64,000 bases of DNA, taken from the NCBI GenBank assembly GCA_951406725.2, contig OX597817.1, positions 18,786,001 through 18,850,000 of the forward strand, read 5' to 3'. Below, piece by piece: positions 855-52,695 of this stretch; position 1 is the first letter of the stretch; each line of letters starts with the position of its first letter. The stretch is from Octopus vulgaris. Lineage: Eukaryota. The notes beneath the pieces are model-generated. The model worked only from the letters and a program-made list of their open reading frames with translations. It ran no database searches and was not told the origin of the DNA. The translations under genes and the position numbers were made by a program.

Positions 855-858
<4 letters not shown>

Positions 859-1060
859 AATCCAAAGATGAAAGCACAAAAAAACACAACAACACGAGGA
901 CGTGGAACAAATATAGCATTATTGGACGCCCAGGAAAGAAGGAAAGAAGAAGGGTTTAAGGTTTCGAGCGGAGCTCTTCGTCGGAAACATGTGAGAAGGA
1001 AAGATCCAGAGAAGGGAAGACAGAGGAAAAAAATCGCCAACGGTTCACAAGCGGTCACAT
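855..1060 (-). mobile_element. Short non-autonomous repeat, family A (Penelope-like/retrozyme-like), with hammerhead-like motif at 954-988
   Basis: Minus strand reads GUUU-CCGACGA-A-GAGC-UCC-GCUC-GAAAC-CUU-AAAC. Homologous to 46268-46457 and flanked by (TA)n on both sides. Confidence 0.7.
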
Positions 1061-1085
1061 TTATATATGTATATATATATATATA

Positions 1086-6845: not shown

Positions 6846-8199
6846 CATAATGTAACACGTCTTGTTTATTTGTATTTTTTAATGTTTATATATGCAGTTT
6901 TTTGCCACCAAATTCAAAAATCACATTCGTTTTGATGTAACATCAATAGTTATTTATTTATTCCTAATTTCATATTTGCTCGTTATATTTGTAACTTTTC
7001 ACTACAGCACTTTGTTGGTTCAATCTATTCTAATATTGTAAGGATAATTACACAACATTTAGTACTTTTCCATATATTGAAAGGTATTTAGGAAGTATAA
7101 TATTAGTCAGAACAAAAGGAAACAATAAATCTCTGCACTGTAAATGCCTTGATAACTCTTTTCTTAAGATGAGAAGTGCTTTGACGATCGAGGTTTTCTG
7201 GAGTGTATACCTTCATCTCTTCTGACTAGAGACCATATATAATCTCCCATCATAGCAGTATCCTATCGTCCTTGGTATCTTCTTTCCATAGTTGAGATGT
7301 CCTGATGAAATCTCTCACCATGCTTCTCAATGACATCACCCAAGTTTTCGGGGAAACAATCTAGGTGAGAATGCAAAAAATGAACCTGTAAGGACATACG
7401 ACAACCCATTTTCTTGAAGTTCTCAATAAGCTTTGCTACCAGCTGTTTGTAATTAGGATCCTTGTGATTTCCTAGGAATCCACGAACTACAACACGAAAT
7501 GCACACCAAGCCTCTTTTTCAAAATTTGTCATCGCTCTTTCCAGTTTCTTCGACTTTAACATTACTTTTACTTGGGGCCCAACAAACATGCCACTCTTGA
7601 TCTTAGCCTCAGATATCTTTGGAAAAATAAGAGAAATTTCTTGAAAAGTTTCTCCTCTAAAATCTAAGGCCTTCACAAACTGTTTTACCAATTCGAGTAT
7701 GATATGAAGTGGGGGTAATATGATTTTGTTGGAATCTACTAGAGGCTGTTTGAGAACATTAAACATTCCTGGCTGCAGTTCTACTCGTTGGGGTGGGGCA
7801 ATGTACTCTCTCGTACTGATCATCATCAGCTCTGCTGTCCCATAAGCAAAGGAAAGATGAATACTTTGTGTATTTCCCTTGCAAGCCAAGCAAGAACGCA
7901 AGCATCTTGAAATCACCATAAACATCCCCCTTGAACTCAGTGTAATTTATTTTGTCGAGTAGCCATCATGAAAGTAGCAGAACTTAGTAATTGGTCTGAA
8001 AGAGAAATTTAGACATACATTTAGTAGCAGAACATTATAACAATACCGAATATATAACATTGAAAGTCGACATATATTTTTTTAACTGTTGATGATACAT
8101 AAAAAATAATTTCATTTTTGGAAATAGCAGAAAAATGGATGGATAAACAATAAAAAAATACAATAAACGAATTTTTTTTTGGAAAATTGTTACGTTGTG
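6846..8199 (-). mobile_element. Chapaev3-like (CMC superfamily) DNA transposon, internally deleted
   Basis: Imperfect TIRs (cataatgtaacac at 6846, ttgttacgttgtg ending 8199) and an identical TTA on both flanks (6843-6845, 8200-8202). Contains a transposase remnant. Confidence 0.7.
7150..7975 (-). pseudogene. Chapaev3-like transposase C-terminal half (frameshifted)
   Basis: ORF 7263-7925 has LPPLHIILELVKQFVKAL, FPKISEAKIKSGMFVGPQV, GFLGNHK, MSLQVHFLHSHLDCFPENLG and HGERFHQDISTMERRYQG. An upstream frame gives GDFKMLAFLLGLQGKYTKYSSFLCLWDSRA. Confidence 0.8.
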
Positions 8200-10930: not shown

Positions 10931-10992
10931 TAAACTAATACATCTGCTGGTTGTTTACACACCCGTCTTCGTCTTTTGTTTTCCTGTAATTC

Positions 10993-11033
<41 letters not shown>

Positions 11034-11037
<4 letters not shown>

Positions 11038-13118
11038 ACAATAAAGGAACGGCCATAATAGGCCATTCACCCACTAGAAATAACAGCCAAAGCTTCAACC
11101 GCAAATAAAAGTTAATTCAGTAAACCAGGAGAAAATTTAAAAAACATTTACCCTGTAATTTCTTATACGATATACCGTTCCATCTGCTGATTAATGGTAA
11201 ACTAACCTGATTAAATTAAATCAAGCCAATCTTCCACAGGCCCTCAGATTCTTCAGTAAGAAATAGCCCAAGACGGAACAGATATTTTCACGAGGCATTT
11301 CCGACGTTGCCAAGTTAATATCTGACCTAAAATTTTCAAATCGTCGCACTCGCGCCAAATTTATCGGCAGCAAATAAATATAAGCCGTCGATTCCATTAC
11401 GGAATTAACCAGAAAATTCATAATTAATCAATATAGGGTGGCAAAAAAATTTTGTAGAATTCTTTTGCCACCAGCGGCCTAGTAGGAAAAAATTAAAATA
11501 GTCATAGACCATTTTTAAGTTCAACATCAACAATAAAGGAACGGCCATAATAGGCCATTCACCCACTAGAAATAACAGCCAAAGCTTCAACCGCAAATAA
11601 AAGTTAATTCAGTAAACCAGGAGAAAATTTAAAAAACATTTACCCTGTAATTTCTTATACGATATACCGTTTCATCTGCTGATTATTGGTAAACTAACCT
11701 GATTAAATTAAATCAAGCCAATCTTCCACAGGATCTCAGATTCTTCAGTAAGAAATAGCCCAAGACGGAACAGATATTTTCACGAGGCATTTCCGACGTT
11801 GCCAAGTTAATATCTGACCTAAAATTTTCAAATCGTCGCACTCGCGCCAAATTTATCGGCAGCAAATAAATATAAGCCGTCGATTCCATTACGGAATTAA
11901 CCAGAAAATTCATAATTAATCAATATAGGGTGGCAAAAAAAATTTTGTAGAATTCTTTTGCCACCAGCGGCCTAGTAGGAAAAAATTAAAATAGTCATAG
12001 ACCATTTTTAAGTTCAACATCAACAATAAAGGAACGGCCATAATAGGCCATTCACCCACTAGAAATAACAGCCAAAGCTTCAACCGCAAATAAAAGTTAA
12101 TTCAGTAAACCAGGAGAAAATTTAAAAACATTTACCCTGTAATTTCTTATACGATATACCGTTTCATCTGCTGATTAATGGTAAACTAACCTGATTAAAT
12201 TAAATCAAGCCAATCTTGAGTGCGACGATTTGAAAATTTTAGGTCAGATATTAACTTGGCAACGTCGGAAATGCCTCGTGAAAATATCTGTTCCGTCTTG
12301 GGCTATTTCTTACTGAAGAATCTGAGGGCCTGTGGAAGATTGGCTTGATTTAATTTAATCAGGTTAGTTTACCATTAATCAGCAGATGAAACGGTATATC
12401 GTATAAGAAATTACAGGGTAAATGTTTTTTAAATTTTCTCCTGGTTTACTGAATTAACTTTTATTTGCGGTTGAAGCTTTGGCTGTTATTTCTAGTGGGT
12501 GAATGGCCTATTATGGCCGTTCCTTTATTGTTGATGTTGAACTTAAAAATGGTCTATGACTATTTTAATTTTTTCCTACTAGGCCGCTGGTGGCAAAAGA
12601 ATTCTACAAAATTTTTTTTGCCACCCTATATTGATTAATTATGAATTTTCTGGTTAATTCCGTAATGGAATCGACGGCTTATATTTATTTGCTGCCGATA
12701 AATTTGGCGCGAGTGCGACGATTTGAAAATTTTAGGTCAGATATTAACTTGGCAACGTCGGAAATGCCTCGTGAAAATATCTGTTCCGTCTTGGGCTATT
12801 TCTTACTGAAGAATCTGAGGGCCTGTGGAAGATTAGCTTGATTTAATTTAATCAGGTTAGTTTACCATTAATCAGCAGATGAAACGGTATATCGTATAAG
12901 AAATTACAGGGTAAATGTTTTTTAAATTTTCTCCTGGTTTACTGAATTAACTTTTATTTGCGGTTGAAGCTTTGGCTGTTATTTCTAGTGGGTGAATGGC
13001 CTATTATGGCCGTTCCTTTATTGTTGATGTTGAACTTAAAAATGGTCTATGACTATTTTAATTTTTTCCTACTAGGCCGCTGGTGGCAAAAGAATTCTAC
13101 AAAATTTTTTTTGCCACC

Positions 13119-13125
<7 letters not shown>
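11034..13125. repeat. ~492-bp tandem array with internal inversion (~2.4 forward units 11034-12217, ~1.8 inverted units 12218-13125)
   Basis: Landmark tcaagccaatctt recurs at 11221, 11713 and 12205 (period 492). From 12218 the sequence is the reverse complement of the unit. Bounded by (TA)n at both ends. Confidence 0.97.
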
Positions 13126-16595: not shown

Positions 16596-16654
<59 letters not shown>

Positions 16655-16840
16655 GTAGCTGAAATTTAGAGAAAAACAAAGGACGAAGACAATTGTATAA
16701 ACAAGAAGCAGGCGTATTAATTTGACGCTCGGGAAGGGGAGAAAGTACTTTGCATTTCGAGCCAAAGTTCTTCAACGGAAAGGAAAGACGATGAAATAAA
16801 GAGAGAATAAATTTAAAAAAAAATTGTGGATTTACCGGTC
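16655..16840 (-). mobile_element. Family A-related short repeat with degenerate hammerhead motif (~16745-16785)
   Basis: Minus strand reads CUUU-CCGUUGA-A-GAAC-UUUG-GCUC-GAAAU-GCA-AAG then ccgagcgtcaaattaatac. Homologous to 23790-23975 and lies between microsatellites. Confidence 0.55.
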
Positions 16841-23434: not shown

Positions 23435-23789
23435 CTCTATCTATCTATCTATATATATATATATATATATATATCTACGTCATTACTTTACCGCTTTCTC
23501 TCCTCTTTCCCTTTACTTCCTTTCCTTTCTTTCCTTTTTCAAGCATGCTCGATTACAAATCTTTCCTCCACCTTCACCACCGCCTAAAGAAATAATTTCC
23601 ACACATTACAGACGCACACACACTTACACACGCACAACCATACGTCAATGTAAGAAACCCCTATCCACACACACACACACTCACATACGCACACACACAC
23701 ACACACCTTCCTTTTGGGGTCACTAGTACTTTATTATCTCCCTTTATTTCTAGCTCTCCTGTCAAACTATTTTCCCAACCAGTCACCGT

Positions 23790-23969
23790 CATTGATCGCT
23801 AAATCCATATTTTTTTTAAAAATTCTCTCTCTGTTTATTTCCTCATATTCCTTTCTGTTGAAGTGCGTAGTCTCAAAACGTAAAAGACTTTCTCATTTTC
23901 CCGAGCGTCAAACTAATACACCTACTTGTACATACATCTGTCTTCGTGTTTTGTCTTTCTGTAAATTTC

Positions 23970-23975
<6 letters not shown>
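23790..23975 (+). mobile_element. Family A-related short repeat with degenerate hammerhead motif (23851-23886)
   Basis: CUUU-CUGUUGA-A-GUGC-GUAG-UCUC-AAAAC-GUA-AAAG followed by ccgagcgtcaaactaatac. Ends directly in (TA)n. Confidence 0.55.
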
Positions 23976-41660: not shown

Positions 41661-41700
41661 GAAGAAGAAGAAGAAGAAGAAGAAGAATAACATCGAAAAA

Positions 41701-41837
41701 TACCTTAGGAATGAGAACTCAAGTTCGAAATTTCCCCAAGACACCTGATGAAGGCTGAATGGTATATCAGCCGAAACGGTGTTAACAACAAGCAAGACGA
41801 GGACAAATATCCGTCAAATGTACATAATGTAAATAAT
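41701..41837 (+). mobile_element. Short repeat family B with hammerhead-like motif (41740-41783)
   Basis: GACAC-CUGAUGA-A-GGCUGA-auggauua-like loop-UCAGCC-GAAAC-G-GUGUU. The core and stem II are intact; the cleavage triplet is lost by a 2-nt deletion relative to the 40789 copy. Confidence 0.75.
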
Positions 41838-45801: not shown

Positions 45802-45959
45802 CGCAGGGGCGGCTGTGTGGTAGCTTGCTTACCAACTACATGTTTCCAGGATCAGTCCTACTGCGTGGCACCTTGGGTAGGGGTCTTCTGCTATAGTCTC
45901 GAGCTGACCGAATCCTTGTGAGTAGATTTGATAAATGGAAACTGAGGGAAGCCTGTCAA

Positions 45960-46008
<49 letters not shown>

Positions 46009-46235
46009 GAGTGTATGTATTGTGTGTATGTATGCTTGTGTGTCTATGTTTGTCCCGCCGATGGTGGTGTGTTTACATCCCCGTAATATAGCGATTCGGC
46101 AAAAGAGACCGATGAAAATAAGTACTCGGCTTGCAAAGAGTAAGTTCTGGAGTCTATTTGCTCGACTTAAGGCGGCGTCCCAGCATGGCCGCAGTCAAAT
46201 GACTGAAACAAGTAAAGGAATGAAAGAATAAAAGA
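45799..46235 (+). mobile_element. SINE S2
   Basis: Homologous to 14252-14665 along its length. Confidence 0.85.
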
Positions 46236-46267
46236 ATATATATATATATATATATATATTAAAAAAT

Positions 46268-46457
46268 GTGACCTCTTGTTGGCGATTTTTTTTTCCTCTG
46301 TCTTCCCTTCTCTGAATCTTTCCTTCTCCTAAGTTTCCGACGAAGAGCTTCGCTCGAAACGTTAAATCCTCCTTCTTTCCTGAGCGTCCAATAATACTAT
46401 ATTTGTTCCACGTCCTCGCGTTGTTGTGTTTTTTGTACTTTGTTGTTTGGATTAACT
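46268..46457 (+). mobile_element. Family A short repeat with hammerhead-like motif (46333-46367)
   Basis: GUUU-CCGACGA-A-GAGC-UUC-GCUC-GAAAC-GUU-AAAU, flanked by (TA)n on both sides. Confidence 0.75.
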
Positions 46458-46519
46458 TTATATATATATATATATAAGAATAAAAGAATATATATATATA
46501 TATATATATAAGAATAAAA

Positions 46520-46565
<46 letters not shown>

Positions 46566-50220: not shown

Positions 50221-52695
50221 GGTTCCCCACTCATGGATGCTAGAAGCCCTTCAACTTGCTAAAGTTCCAGTGAGAAGTCAAAGCTATAGCTGTTACAACT
50301 TCATCGTGGGCCACTATCTTGAAATTAAAAACTGAGTGAATGCACTATCACTGATAGAATACCGTATCGCAAAAGCATATTCCGAGGGGACAGCCTCTCT
50401 GTAATGTTGTTTATACTTTCCGTGAACCCCTTGTCGTTCATGTTAAAGAAGTCTGTAGGATACGTCACTGGTTCACAAGGAAACAGAAATACCAAAATTA
50501 CACATTGTGTCTTTGTGGATGGCTTAAAACTGTATGCAAAGAATAAGCACGAGATGAAAAAGAGCCTTGACCTAGTTACATCATTCTCAAAGGATGGAGG
50601 ATTGAAATTTGGTCAGAATAACTGTTGTTATATGGCTCTGGGAAGCGGGGAAAACTATACACCAGATTAGTAACATCTCCATTAATAGTGTGACAGTTTC
50701 CCCTGTATCTAATGAGGAATGTTACAGGATACCTAGGGGTGGATGAAAATATATCTTACAGTGGCACATGTAACAAAACACTTATCACCAAACATATTAC
50801 AAACGAATAAAGAAAATTTGGATCTTTGAACTCTCTACATTCAATAAAACAGTATCCCCCAATGTGTTTGCAGTTCCAGTACCCGTGACAATATTTGGGA
50901 TGCTTGACTGGACGCTTGATGAGATCCGAGCCATTGATGTGAAAACACGAAAAATACTAACAAGCACACACAGTTTCCACATAAACAGTGATGTAGACCA
51001 CCTCTACCTAACGAAAGCAAGGCAGAAGAGGCTTAACATCGATTCAAAATGCCTTTGAATGTCGCATTATATCCCTTCGGCAACATCATTTAACCACCAA
51101 GTATCAAAGTGCATCCCATGACCAAGTTTGCATACATGAGGCTGATAACATCATCAGACTTGGAATGCAGCTCCTTTAGCAACACTCTTTGTCTTTGTCT
51201 CATAACGTAGAATACATGCGGGAGGCGCAATGGCCCAGTGGTTAGGGCAGCGGACTCGCGGTCGTAGGATCGCGGTTTCGATTCCCAGACCGGGCGTTGT
51301 GAGTGTTTATTGAGCGAAAACACCTAAAGCTCCACGATGCTCCGGCAGGGATGGTGGTGATCCCTGCTGTACTCTTTCACCACAACTTCCTCTCACTCTT
51401 ACTTCCTGTTTCTATTGTACCTGTATTTCAAGGGGCCGGCCTTGTCACTCTCTGTGTCACGCTGAATATCCCCGAGAACTACGTTAAGGGTACACGTGTC
51501 TGTGGAGTGCTCAGCCACTTGCACGTTAATTTCACGAGCAGGCTGTTCCGTTGATCGGATCAACCGGAACCCTCGTCGTCGTAACCGACGGAGTGCTTCC
51601 ATCCCAGAATACATGCCCAAAGAAATCGCACGAGTCTACCGCAACGTATCATCAGATAAAAGATGAGCCTATATGAACATAAGCCTATGAATAGATATGT
51701 TATTAGAACGCTCCGTGATGATAGTGACATCGATCATCAAAGCTGTTTATCATGGACAAATAGCCGGATTACCACCTCCCACTTTGAAGGGTATGAGTTT
51801 GCAATCCAGGAACAGGAAATATCAACCAAGTACTTGATGCACAAAAGGGACAGAGATGCAGGAAAAAGCCGTAAGATGTGACAACCGATGCAGACTTTGT
51901 GGATTTCACACTGAAGATACCACCTACACCATAAGCAGTTGTCCGAAAATGTAATCACGGTATTATCTACCGATGAGACATGTCGTTGCAGCTAGGAAAC
52001 TCTATAATAAAATCCGTCGGTTGGATAATCCCTAGGACAAAGAAATAAGAACCTACAATATAACAGAAGCCATAGCTACTAATAATAAAAAGGAATACTG
52101 GTGGAATGTTCCAGTGAATACCTCAATAAAATGTAAGCACAACAGACCTGATATAATGATTTAGGATAGAGAATAGAAACTGTGCACAGTTGTGGAATTT
52201 AGCAGTCCAGCGGATGTTAACAAAGCTCAAGATCAGTAAAAAAGAGAAAACTTATGCTGATATTTGAAAAATCTGCAGTTACTCTATCCAGATTGCAAGG
52301 TCAAGTTTATACCTGTAATTATTAGGGCCTTGGGATATGTAATACACCGCCTAAATACCAATCTTGACAAATTCTCAAAATCAGAAAGGAGAAAGTTAAT
52401 TCGAAGGCTACAGATCCAATCCACCACTGGAACTGTAAAAATCTGTAAAACTTTCCAGAAGTTTATCCTTTAAATATATATGAACATGTTTATATATGCA
52501 ACTATATGCATGAGAATACATACATGAAACATACAAGTCTGCACAGACATACATACATGCATACATACATACATGCATACAAACAAACAAACAAAATACC
52601 TTGTTGTTGATGTTGAAATTCCAATGAAGGAGCCTTAGATCTAGGTTAGAAACTGGTTCTTTCTCTACTGGCAAAGAATGTTGAAATAAACTGAT
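50221..52695 (+). mobile_element. R4/Dong-clade LINE (RT plus restriction-like endonuclease), 5'-truncated, between (TACA)n tracts
   Basis: VPHSWMLEAL, IFRGDSLSVMLFILSVNPLS, HCVFVDGLKLYAK, FAIQEQEISTK, CRLCG...C.....RH, KHNRPDI, VEFSSPAD and KFIPVIIRALG, with stops and frameshifts. Confidence 0.9.
51221..51605 (+). mobile_element. SINE S3 nested in the R4/Dong LINE
   Basis: Family S3 sequence with 11-bp TSD agaatacatgc at 51209-51219 and 51606-51616. Confidence 0.95.

Follow-up and report, generated by a model that had tools for sequence, protein, structure and literature searches.

Minimal hammerhead ribozymes have been described in Penelope-like elements (PLEs) by Cervera and de la Pena (2014, PMC4209133), and both the element class and the hammerhead motif considered here are therefore already known. 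As in the octopus repeat, the motifs in the parts of that work drawn on here follow the type I order, carry an extra base after A9, a G10.1-C11.1 pair and a palindrome at positions 15.2-16.2, and occur mostly as single motifs from truncated PLEs. Their cores, however, are CUGANGA or have U3-A8, whereas the octopus repeat mostly has C4 or U6, and a stem II of only 4 bp also sets it apart from them. The EN+ PLEs of the Neptune and Nematis type (Craig et al. 2021, PMC8557442) resemble the coding partners of the repeat in their reverse transcriptase (RT), C-terminal GIY-YIG domain, cysteine linker, pLTRs (pseudo-LTRs), partial tandems and insertion bias toward microsatellites; in contrast to the elements in the available portions of that account, the octopus lineage A1 and a related young family (both introduced below) have a ~2-kb CA-rich 3' UTR, and there is a very large excess of fixed-length solo ends. 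The tails found here (104-130 nt) are also longer than the 30-40 nt published for PLEs.

Among the mechanisms described for PLEs, that of Poseidon of Anolis (Frangieh et al. 2024, PMC11167929) is the closest, with internal priming near the pLTR-ORF junction, an AT-rich target, an AC-rich site, protein-assisted hammerhead cleavage and insertion that does not depend on cleavage. As far as the consulted text describes it, Poseidon primes within its ORF, and the priming site has no homology to the target; the main 3' end of the octopus copies instead maps to a TA-like junction, ~300 nt ahead of the start codon, that probably offers microhomology to the target. In Penelope itself, the transcription start site is reported to lie inside the upstream pLTR (PMC2377424, PMC6765202). 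Animal non-LTR retrozymes (bioRxiv 10.64898/2026.07.22.740005) are likewise short, PLE-derived hammerhead units but, in the sections of the preprint used here, are defined by tandem units, unlike the mostly single, (TA)n-separated octopus copies. Finally, natural U4C and A6C hammerheads (Perreault et al. 2011, PMC3088659) vary at the same core positions and are reported to have lower but non-zero activity; those are rare viroid or phage cases, whereas here the changes are fixed in thousands of copies, and A6U is absent from the main text of that paper. An octopus repeat annotation (PMC13282606) lists active PLEs and, in its available text, never mentions hammerheads.

The window analyzed here is a stretch of 64,000 nt of Octopus vulgaris DNA, for which the original prediction, made from the sequence alone, proposed one non-coding family with five ribozyme-bearing repeats in the window. 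Five related repeats are indeed present at the predicted positions, align within groups (blastn E 1e-61 to 1e-11), and had their cores, loops and stem I sequences read correctly. They do not form a single family, but split into three sister lineages: A1 (the copies at 46268 and 855), B (59872) and A2 (16655 and 23790). No A1-A2 match was found by blastn within the window, despite which the ribozyme region can be aligned between lineages. In addition, the copy placed at 23790 starts near 23598, and the count of five omits a sixth copy, an A2 stub. The features are as follows:

46263..46457, + strand: solo pLTR copy of lineage A1, from the 5' wall to the fixed 3' end, with (TA)n flanking both sides
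46333..46367, + strand: predicted minimal type I hammerhead motif of this copy, with the predicted cut after 46363; stem I 46333-46336/46364-46367, core CCGACGA (U4C) 46337-46343 followed by the extra A, stem II 46345-46348/46352-46355, then GAAA and the ACGU palindrome
856..1062, - strand: solo pLTR copy of lineage A1, core CCGACGA, palindrome mutated, 92% identical to L172
59872..60055, - strand: solo copy of sister lineage B, canonical core CUGAAGA, with the 5' strand of stem I taken out by a ~13-nt deletion
23598..23975, + strand: lineage A2 copy of ~380 nt that continues into PLE 3' UTR, 87% identical to L178; core CUGUUGA (A6U), stem II and G12 decayed
16651..16840, - strand: decayed lineage A2 copy, core CCGUUGA (a private change)
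10932..10998, + strand: 3'-only A2 stub without ribozyme, followed by (TA)n (blastn)

The 46268 copy has a ~10-nt deletion near its 5' end; in its aligned columns, it shares 95% identity with a copy from L172, a locus that holds an ORF. Its surroundings (45811-46259 and 46459-46544) are the (TA)n tail array of a different, common dispersed repeat, and a 34-bp unit on both sides of it is a possible target duplication. The ACGU palindrome attributed to the best copies is intact in three of the five (46268, 59872 and 23790), the last of which lacks G12. In an Rfam scan of the window, the best 150 of 188 weak matches included no hammerhead and were nearly all microsatellite artefacts. PLE coding sequence was absent from the window, as judged by Pfam on six window ORFs and by tblastn with a partner protein; the window does hold a frame of 227 codons that Pfam does not name and a short piece of RT (7263-7946 and 50329-50670), both unrelated to the repeat.

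Outside the window, the repeat is found next to PLE genes. One copy, in L038, has a PLE-like ORF start upstream, and this ORF as query returned 150 scored matches, many of them within frames 800-1,000 codons long. The repeat lies beside the ORF, on one side or on both, in 20 fetched loci, and in L171 and L172 an A1 repeat 87-92% identical to the window copies (blastn) flanks the PLE ORF on both sides. As the repeat stands on both sides of an RT–GIY-YIG ORF, it is not an orphan family: an autonomous partner, raised as a possibility in the original prediction, exists for A1 (L171, L172) and for A2 (L386), and what had been taken for a non-coding retroelement family is the terminal repeat of coding PLEs, the inspected subfamilies including long or ORF-linked members. 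Direct pLTRs with the hammerhead (200-766 nt, 96-100% identical) flank the ORF in L093, L094, L171, L172 and L386. Two of these loci look intact, namely L093, with a 1008-aa frame and pLTRs 99.7% identical, and the A2 locus L386, with a 1119-aa frame between 625-nt pLTRs that are 100% identical and carry the core CUGUUGA. This core follows the ORF in all 12 A2 long-frame loci fetched, and a GIY-YIG fragment lies upstream in L178 (A2); in lineage B, homology to the A1 3' UTR lies upstream in 2 of 20 copies.

The single partner ORF has RT and C-terminal GIY-YIG regions, whose motifs are visible in the translations and whose Pfam matches (RVT_1 and GIY-YIG) fall below the curated cut-offs. Its homologs number 630 at E<=1e-20, with PF00078, PF26215, PF28514 and some PF01541 among the matches listed. 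A Zn-finger-like cysteine motif, C-x4-C-x2-C, a Neptune/Nematis trait, lies between RT and endonuclease in P0001, P0002 and P0123, and a partial tandem with a ~6.2-kb period occurs in L099/L100. Based on these sequence features, the repeat of each lineage is almost certainly the terminal pLTR of a PLE, or closely homologous to one, and domain and motif features point to the Neptune/Nematis type. The 3' UTR of A1-type elements includes ~2 kb of CA/TACA-rich repeat inside the element (L094:1100-3500; L172:5330-7400), and these PLEs thus spread microsatellite-like DNA.

The very high copy number anticipated for the repeat is borne out across the genome (2.8 Gb, 227 contigs), with at least 16,764 A1 copies by an exact 19-mer at the 3' end and at least 16,109 A2 copies by an exact 31-nt ribozyme pattern, the reversed control giving 0 in both cases. 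As the 19-mer is present in 20 of 30 A1 copies picked by their 5' end, A1 should number roughly 25,000 copies. The young family has 833 exact ends, and its copies are 97-99% identical. Targeting of (TA)n, also part of the original prediction, is evident from the (TA)n directly 3' of 78 of the 91 copies picked by 3' end, compared to 5-9% of random positions. Nearly all of these copies are single; tandems are occasional, among them three head-to-tail copies with (TA)n spacers in L172. In L044:1419-1668, two A1 copies stand head-to-head across a short (TA)n, an inverted arrangement known for PLEs.

The non-canonical cores suspected to be naturally fixed are inherited and not products of decay: C4 is present in 24/24 young-family copies, and U6 in 96/100 A2 copies as well as in the intact L386. 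Of the variants seen in the window, CCGACGA and CUGUUGA are inherited in this sense, while CCGUUGA at 16655 is private decay, found in 1/10 copies of its cluster. Seventy-four A1 copies were long enough to score, and two misaligned ones were dropped; in the remaining 72, position 4 is C in 54, U in 16 and A in 2. The U4 copies represent a subfamily trait, as a linked mark occurs in 15/15 of them vs 2/50 C4 copies, which rules out CpG decay as the main source of the U4/C4 difference; decay does account for the cores CCAACGA and CCGAUGA. All 24 young-family copies covering the core read CCGACGA, although both repeats of one intact member have U4. Lineage B has canonical CUGANGA in 12 and C4 in 4 of 22 copies. 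The A2 figure refers to the first 100 matches to a pattern with positions 6 and 7 free, in which U6 (CUGUNGA) is accompanied by all four bases at position 7 (41 U, 25 A, 18 C and 12 G, hand count). The standard PLE core CUGANGA with GAAA is therefore found in lineage B and one A1 subfamily, and is absent from most A1 copies, the young family and A2. Since two normally fixed core letters are changed even in young intact elements, the altered hammerhead likely cuts slowly or not at all. A PLE family with C4 or U6 did not turn up in our literature searches or in a keyword search of one of the two 2014 supplement files; such families may be listed in Lunse et al. 2017, which lay outside these searches.

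Despite the altered cores, there is a pattern of retained hammerhead fold. The PLE-type features of the original prediction (the extra base after A9, G10.1-C11.1 and the palindromic stem III) are all present, and are invariant in 13 subfamily majorities and 14 representative copies. When six lineage majorities are compared, mean identity is 0.84 in the 35-nt motif vs 0.37 upstream and 0.49 downstream (best flank window 0.74), with variation confined to positions 4, 6, 7 and 17 (the last U, C or A, never G), loop II, a single mismatch in stem I and a single compensatory pair. Stem cells are paired in 99% of cases vs 18-49% in slid controls. Covariation is limited to one event: both sides have changed in one of the eight pairs, a stem I pair, by a single inherited change, and stem II never varies. 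The ribozyme is better kept than the flanks across lineages and only slightly so within subfamilies (A1 divergence 0.022 in the ribozyme vs 0.030 in the flanks), as expected of dead copies; differences of up to twofold come from sets picked by core or best score, which are biased. The hammerhead is not the predicted minimum-energy fold, either as monomer or as dimer. A conserved GAGCG block 20-30 nt behind it (window ~46383-46387, all lineages) may instead base-pair with the 3' side of stem II, with a predicted share of 0.02-0.83 depending on lineage, as a possible alternative fold. Inspection by eye for an intron ending before stem I gave no conserved AG.

The ends of A1 copies were mapped at 92 of the first 100 listed 3' anchors, all in the first 18 Mb of one chromosome and requiring the exact 19-mer; the other eight comprised six anchors from other searches (five at the wall, one past) and two more without data. 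Removal of one duplicate and three sister-family copies left 88 A1 copies. These share a fixed 3' end at (TA)n, and their 5' ends are scattered between 27 and 195 nt upstream of it, at ~0.003 per nt, up to a wall: 43 of the 48 copies reaching 196 nt stop within 196-216, compared to 3.0 expected, and 5 pass (41/51 stop under a looser alignment). Ends lie no more than 5 nt from the predicted cut (103 nt) in only 2/75 copies, which is the background rate and rules out copy ends defined by the cut site. Extension of copies into PLE 3' UTR likewise rules out a fixed internal 5' end of a stand-alone element. The position homologous to the wall has smaller peaks in the other groups: 3 of 24 young-family copies stop there and 21 run past (Fisher P 1e-10 vs A1), and in A2 ~11/30 copies end near it and 9 extend beyond.

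In full elements, the upstream repeat runs through a TA-like junction, with 45 exact matches, into the 5' UTR. Thirty junction-spanning copies were examined, 9 of them long and ORF-linked and 21 short, the latter necessarily originating at the front of the RNA. Six of the 30 have the 104-130 nt tails, ending at (TA)n, and 15 continue for 248-515 nt into the element and then rejoin a second pLTR, 11 of these joining at +248 to +294, within AC-rich sequence immediately ahead of the start codon. All 21 short copies end at or before 227 nt upstream, while 5/9 long ORF-linked upstream pLTRs extend past the wall and 5/15 downstream copies in rejoined elements cross its position. The repeat is covered by assembled contigs of four presumed RNA runs, although such contigs cannot show start, strand or level.

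Starting from the observed identity of the repeat with the pLTRs of coding elements, its fixed 3' end, (TA)n target and 5' wall, and the fixation of C4 and U6, we lean slightly toward a mechanism in which solo ~200-nt copies are made by internal priming at the pLTR/5'UTR junction and run-off at the RNA 5' end. The element's enzyme would nick (TA)n and prime internally near the RNA front, presumably via the TA-like junction sequence, and the cDNA would run off the RNA 5' end ~210 nt upstream to leave a solo copy, such that the 5' wall would mark the transcription start. Run-off cDNA may also jump to the AC-rich site before the start codon, giving the rejoined copies. Reading the wall as the RNA 5' end draws on the Penelope start inside the pLTR and on the internal priming of Poseidon, as cited above. 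Selection would preserve the hammerhead fold, whose most likely role is that of a slow, protein-assisted or protein-binding element, and cleavage is likely not needed for insertion. The contrast between A1 (43 at the wall, 5 past) and the young family (mostly beyond it) counts, however, against run-off alone, and leaves room for solo pLTRs acting as their own masters. The 5/9 long ORF-linked upstream pLTRs that extend past the wall, and the non-homologous priming site of Poseidon, also weigh against the proposed mechanism. Self-mastering solo copies, in essence the view of the original prediction, would have an internal promoter, their transcription into (TA)n would recreate the priming junction, and they would be copied in trans like SINEs, which can coexist with run-off. 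We consider this unlikely as the main route, yet far from negligible: the 16,764 exact 3' ends greatly outnumber the 45 exact junctions, the shift from 43:5 to 3:21 between A1 and the young family fits it, as does the (TA)n-spaced head-to-tail triplet in L172, and pLTR sequences alone are reported to have mobilized unrelated DNA in a rotifer (PMC3846280, in the text available). Against it, each A1 subfamily inspected by eye has long or junction-linked copies, and the short junction-spanning copies share the same wall.

Ordinary 5' truncation from the 3' pLTR, with the peak caused by a polymerase pause or by microhomology to the microsatellite, would explain the steady rate of staggered ends between 27 and 195 nt, the 10/88 A1 copies that end at one target-like ATGTG, and the young family, which resembles plain truncation. 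It is nevertheless improbable as the source of the wall, as internal AT-rich sites stop only 2-4 copies each vs 43/48 at the wall, and the young family and the 5/15 downstream copies in rejoined elements cross that position. Far less probable still is a retrozyme route, in which hammerhead cleavage of tandem transcripts would give unit RNAs that are circularized and re-inserted, as proposed for related motifs in the relevant parts of PMC4209133 and bioRxiv 10.64898/2026.07.22.740005. The conserved fold, the palindrome and the occasional tandem copies are compatible with such a route; however, there is no end peak at the cut site, the copies are not circularly permuted, and the dominant cores are altered at positions reported in PMC3088659, where its text treats them, to lower activity. 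Nor are tandem hammerhead units, the retrozyme trait, what is seen here, nearly all copies being single and the L172 tandem being (TA)n-spaced.

There is also a more speculative picture, which we regard as doubtful: the hammerhead may have given up cutting and now act as a handle for protein binding, with its fold conserved and positions 4 and 6 free to vary; promoter-bearing solo pLTRs with a (TA)n tail may serve as SINE-like masters; and the 5' wall and AC-rich jump sites may record, like fossils, where PLE transcription starts and where the template jumps occur. These results bear on the role of hammerheads in PLEs and on the origin of pLTRs and solo ends. Canonical, C4 and U6 cores occur side by side in sister lineages of one genome, and two of these core types are carried by young intact elements; the need for cleavage is thus directly testable; the 5' wall, in turn, predicts the RNA start to within ~10 nt.

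Additional features were noted along the way. At the 5' wall, an ATG in start-codon-like context is found in A1 (window 46266), B, the young family and A2, with a stop following at once in A1 and B. An unrelated minimal hammerhead with a canonical core and a 6-bp stem II lies at window 41700-41830 (+ strand) beside (TAA)n/(AAG)n; similar motifs occur in L193, L140 and L174, and are likely another PLE end. Finally, a 492-bp unit occurs at window 11034-13125 as 2.4 direct copies together with an inverted arm; these are 98% identical, have (TA)n flanks and look like a recent PLE-type inverted partial tandem.
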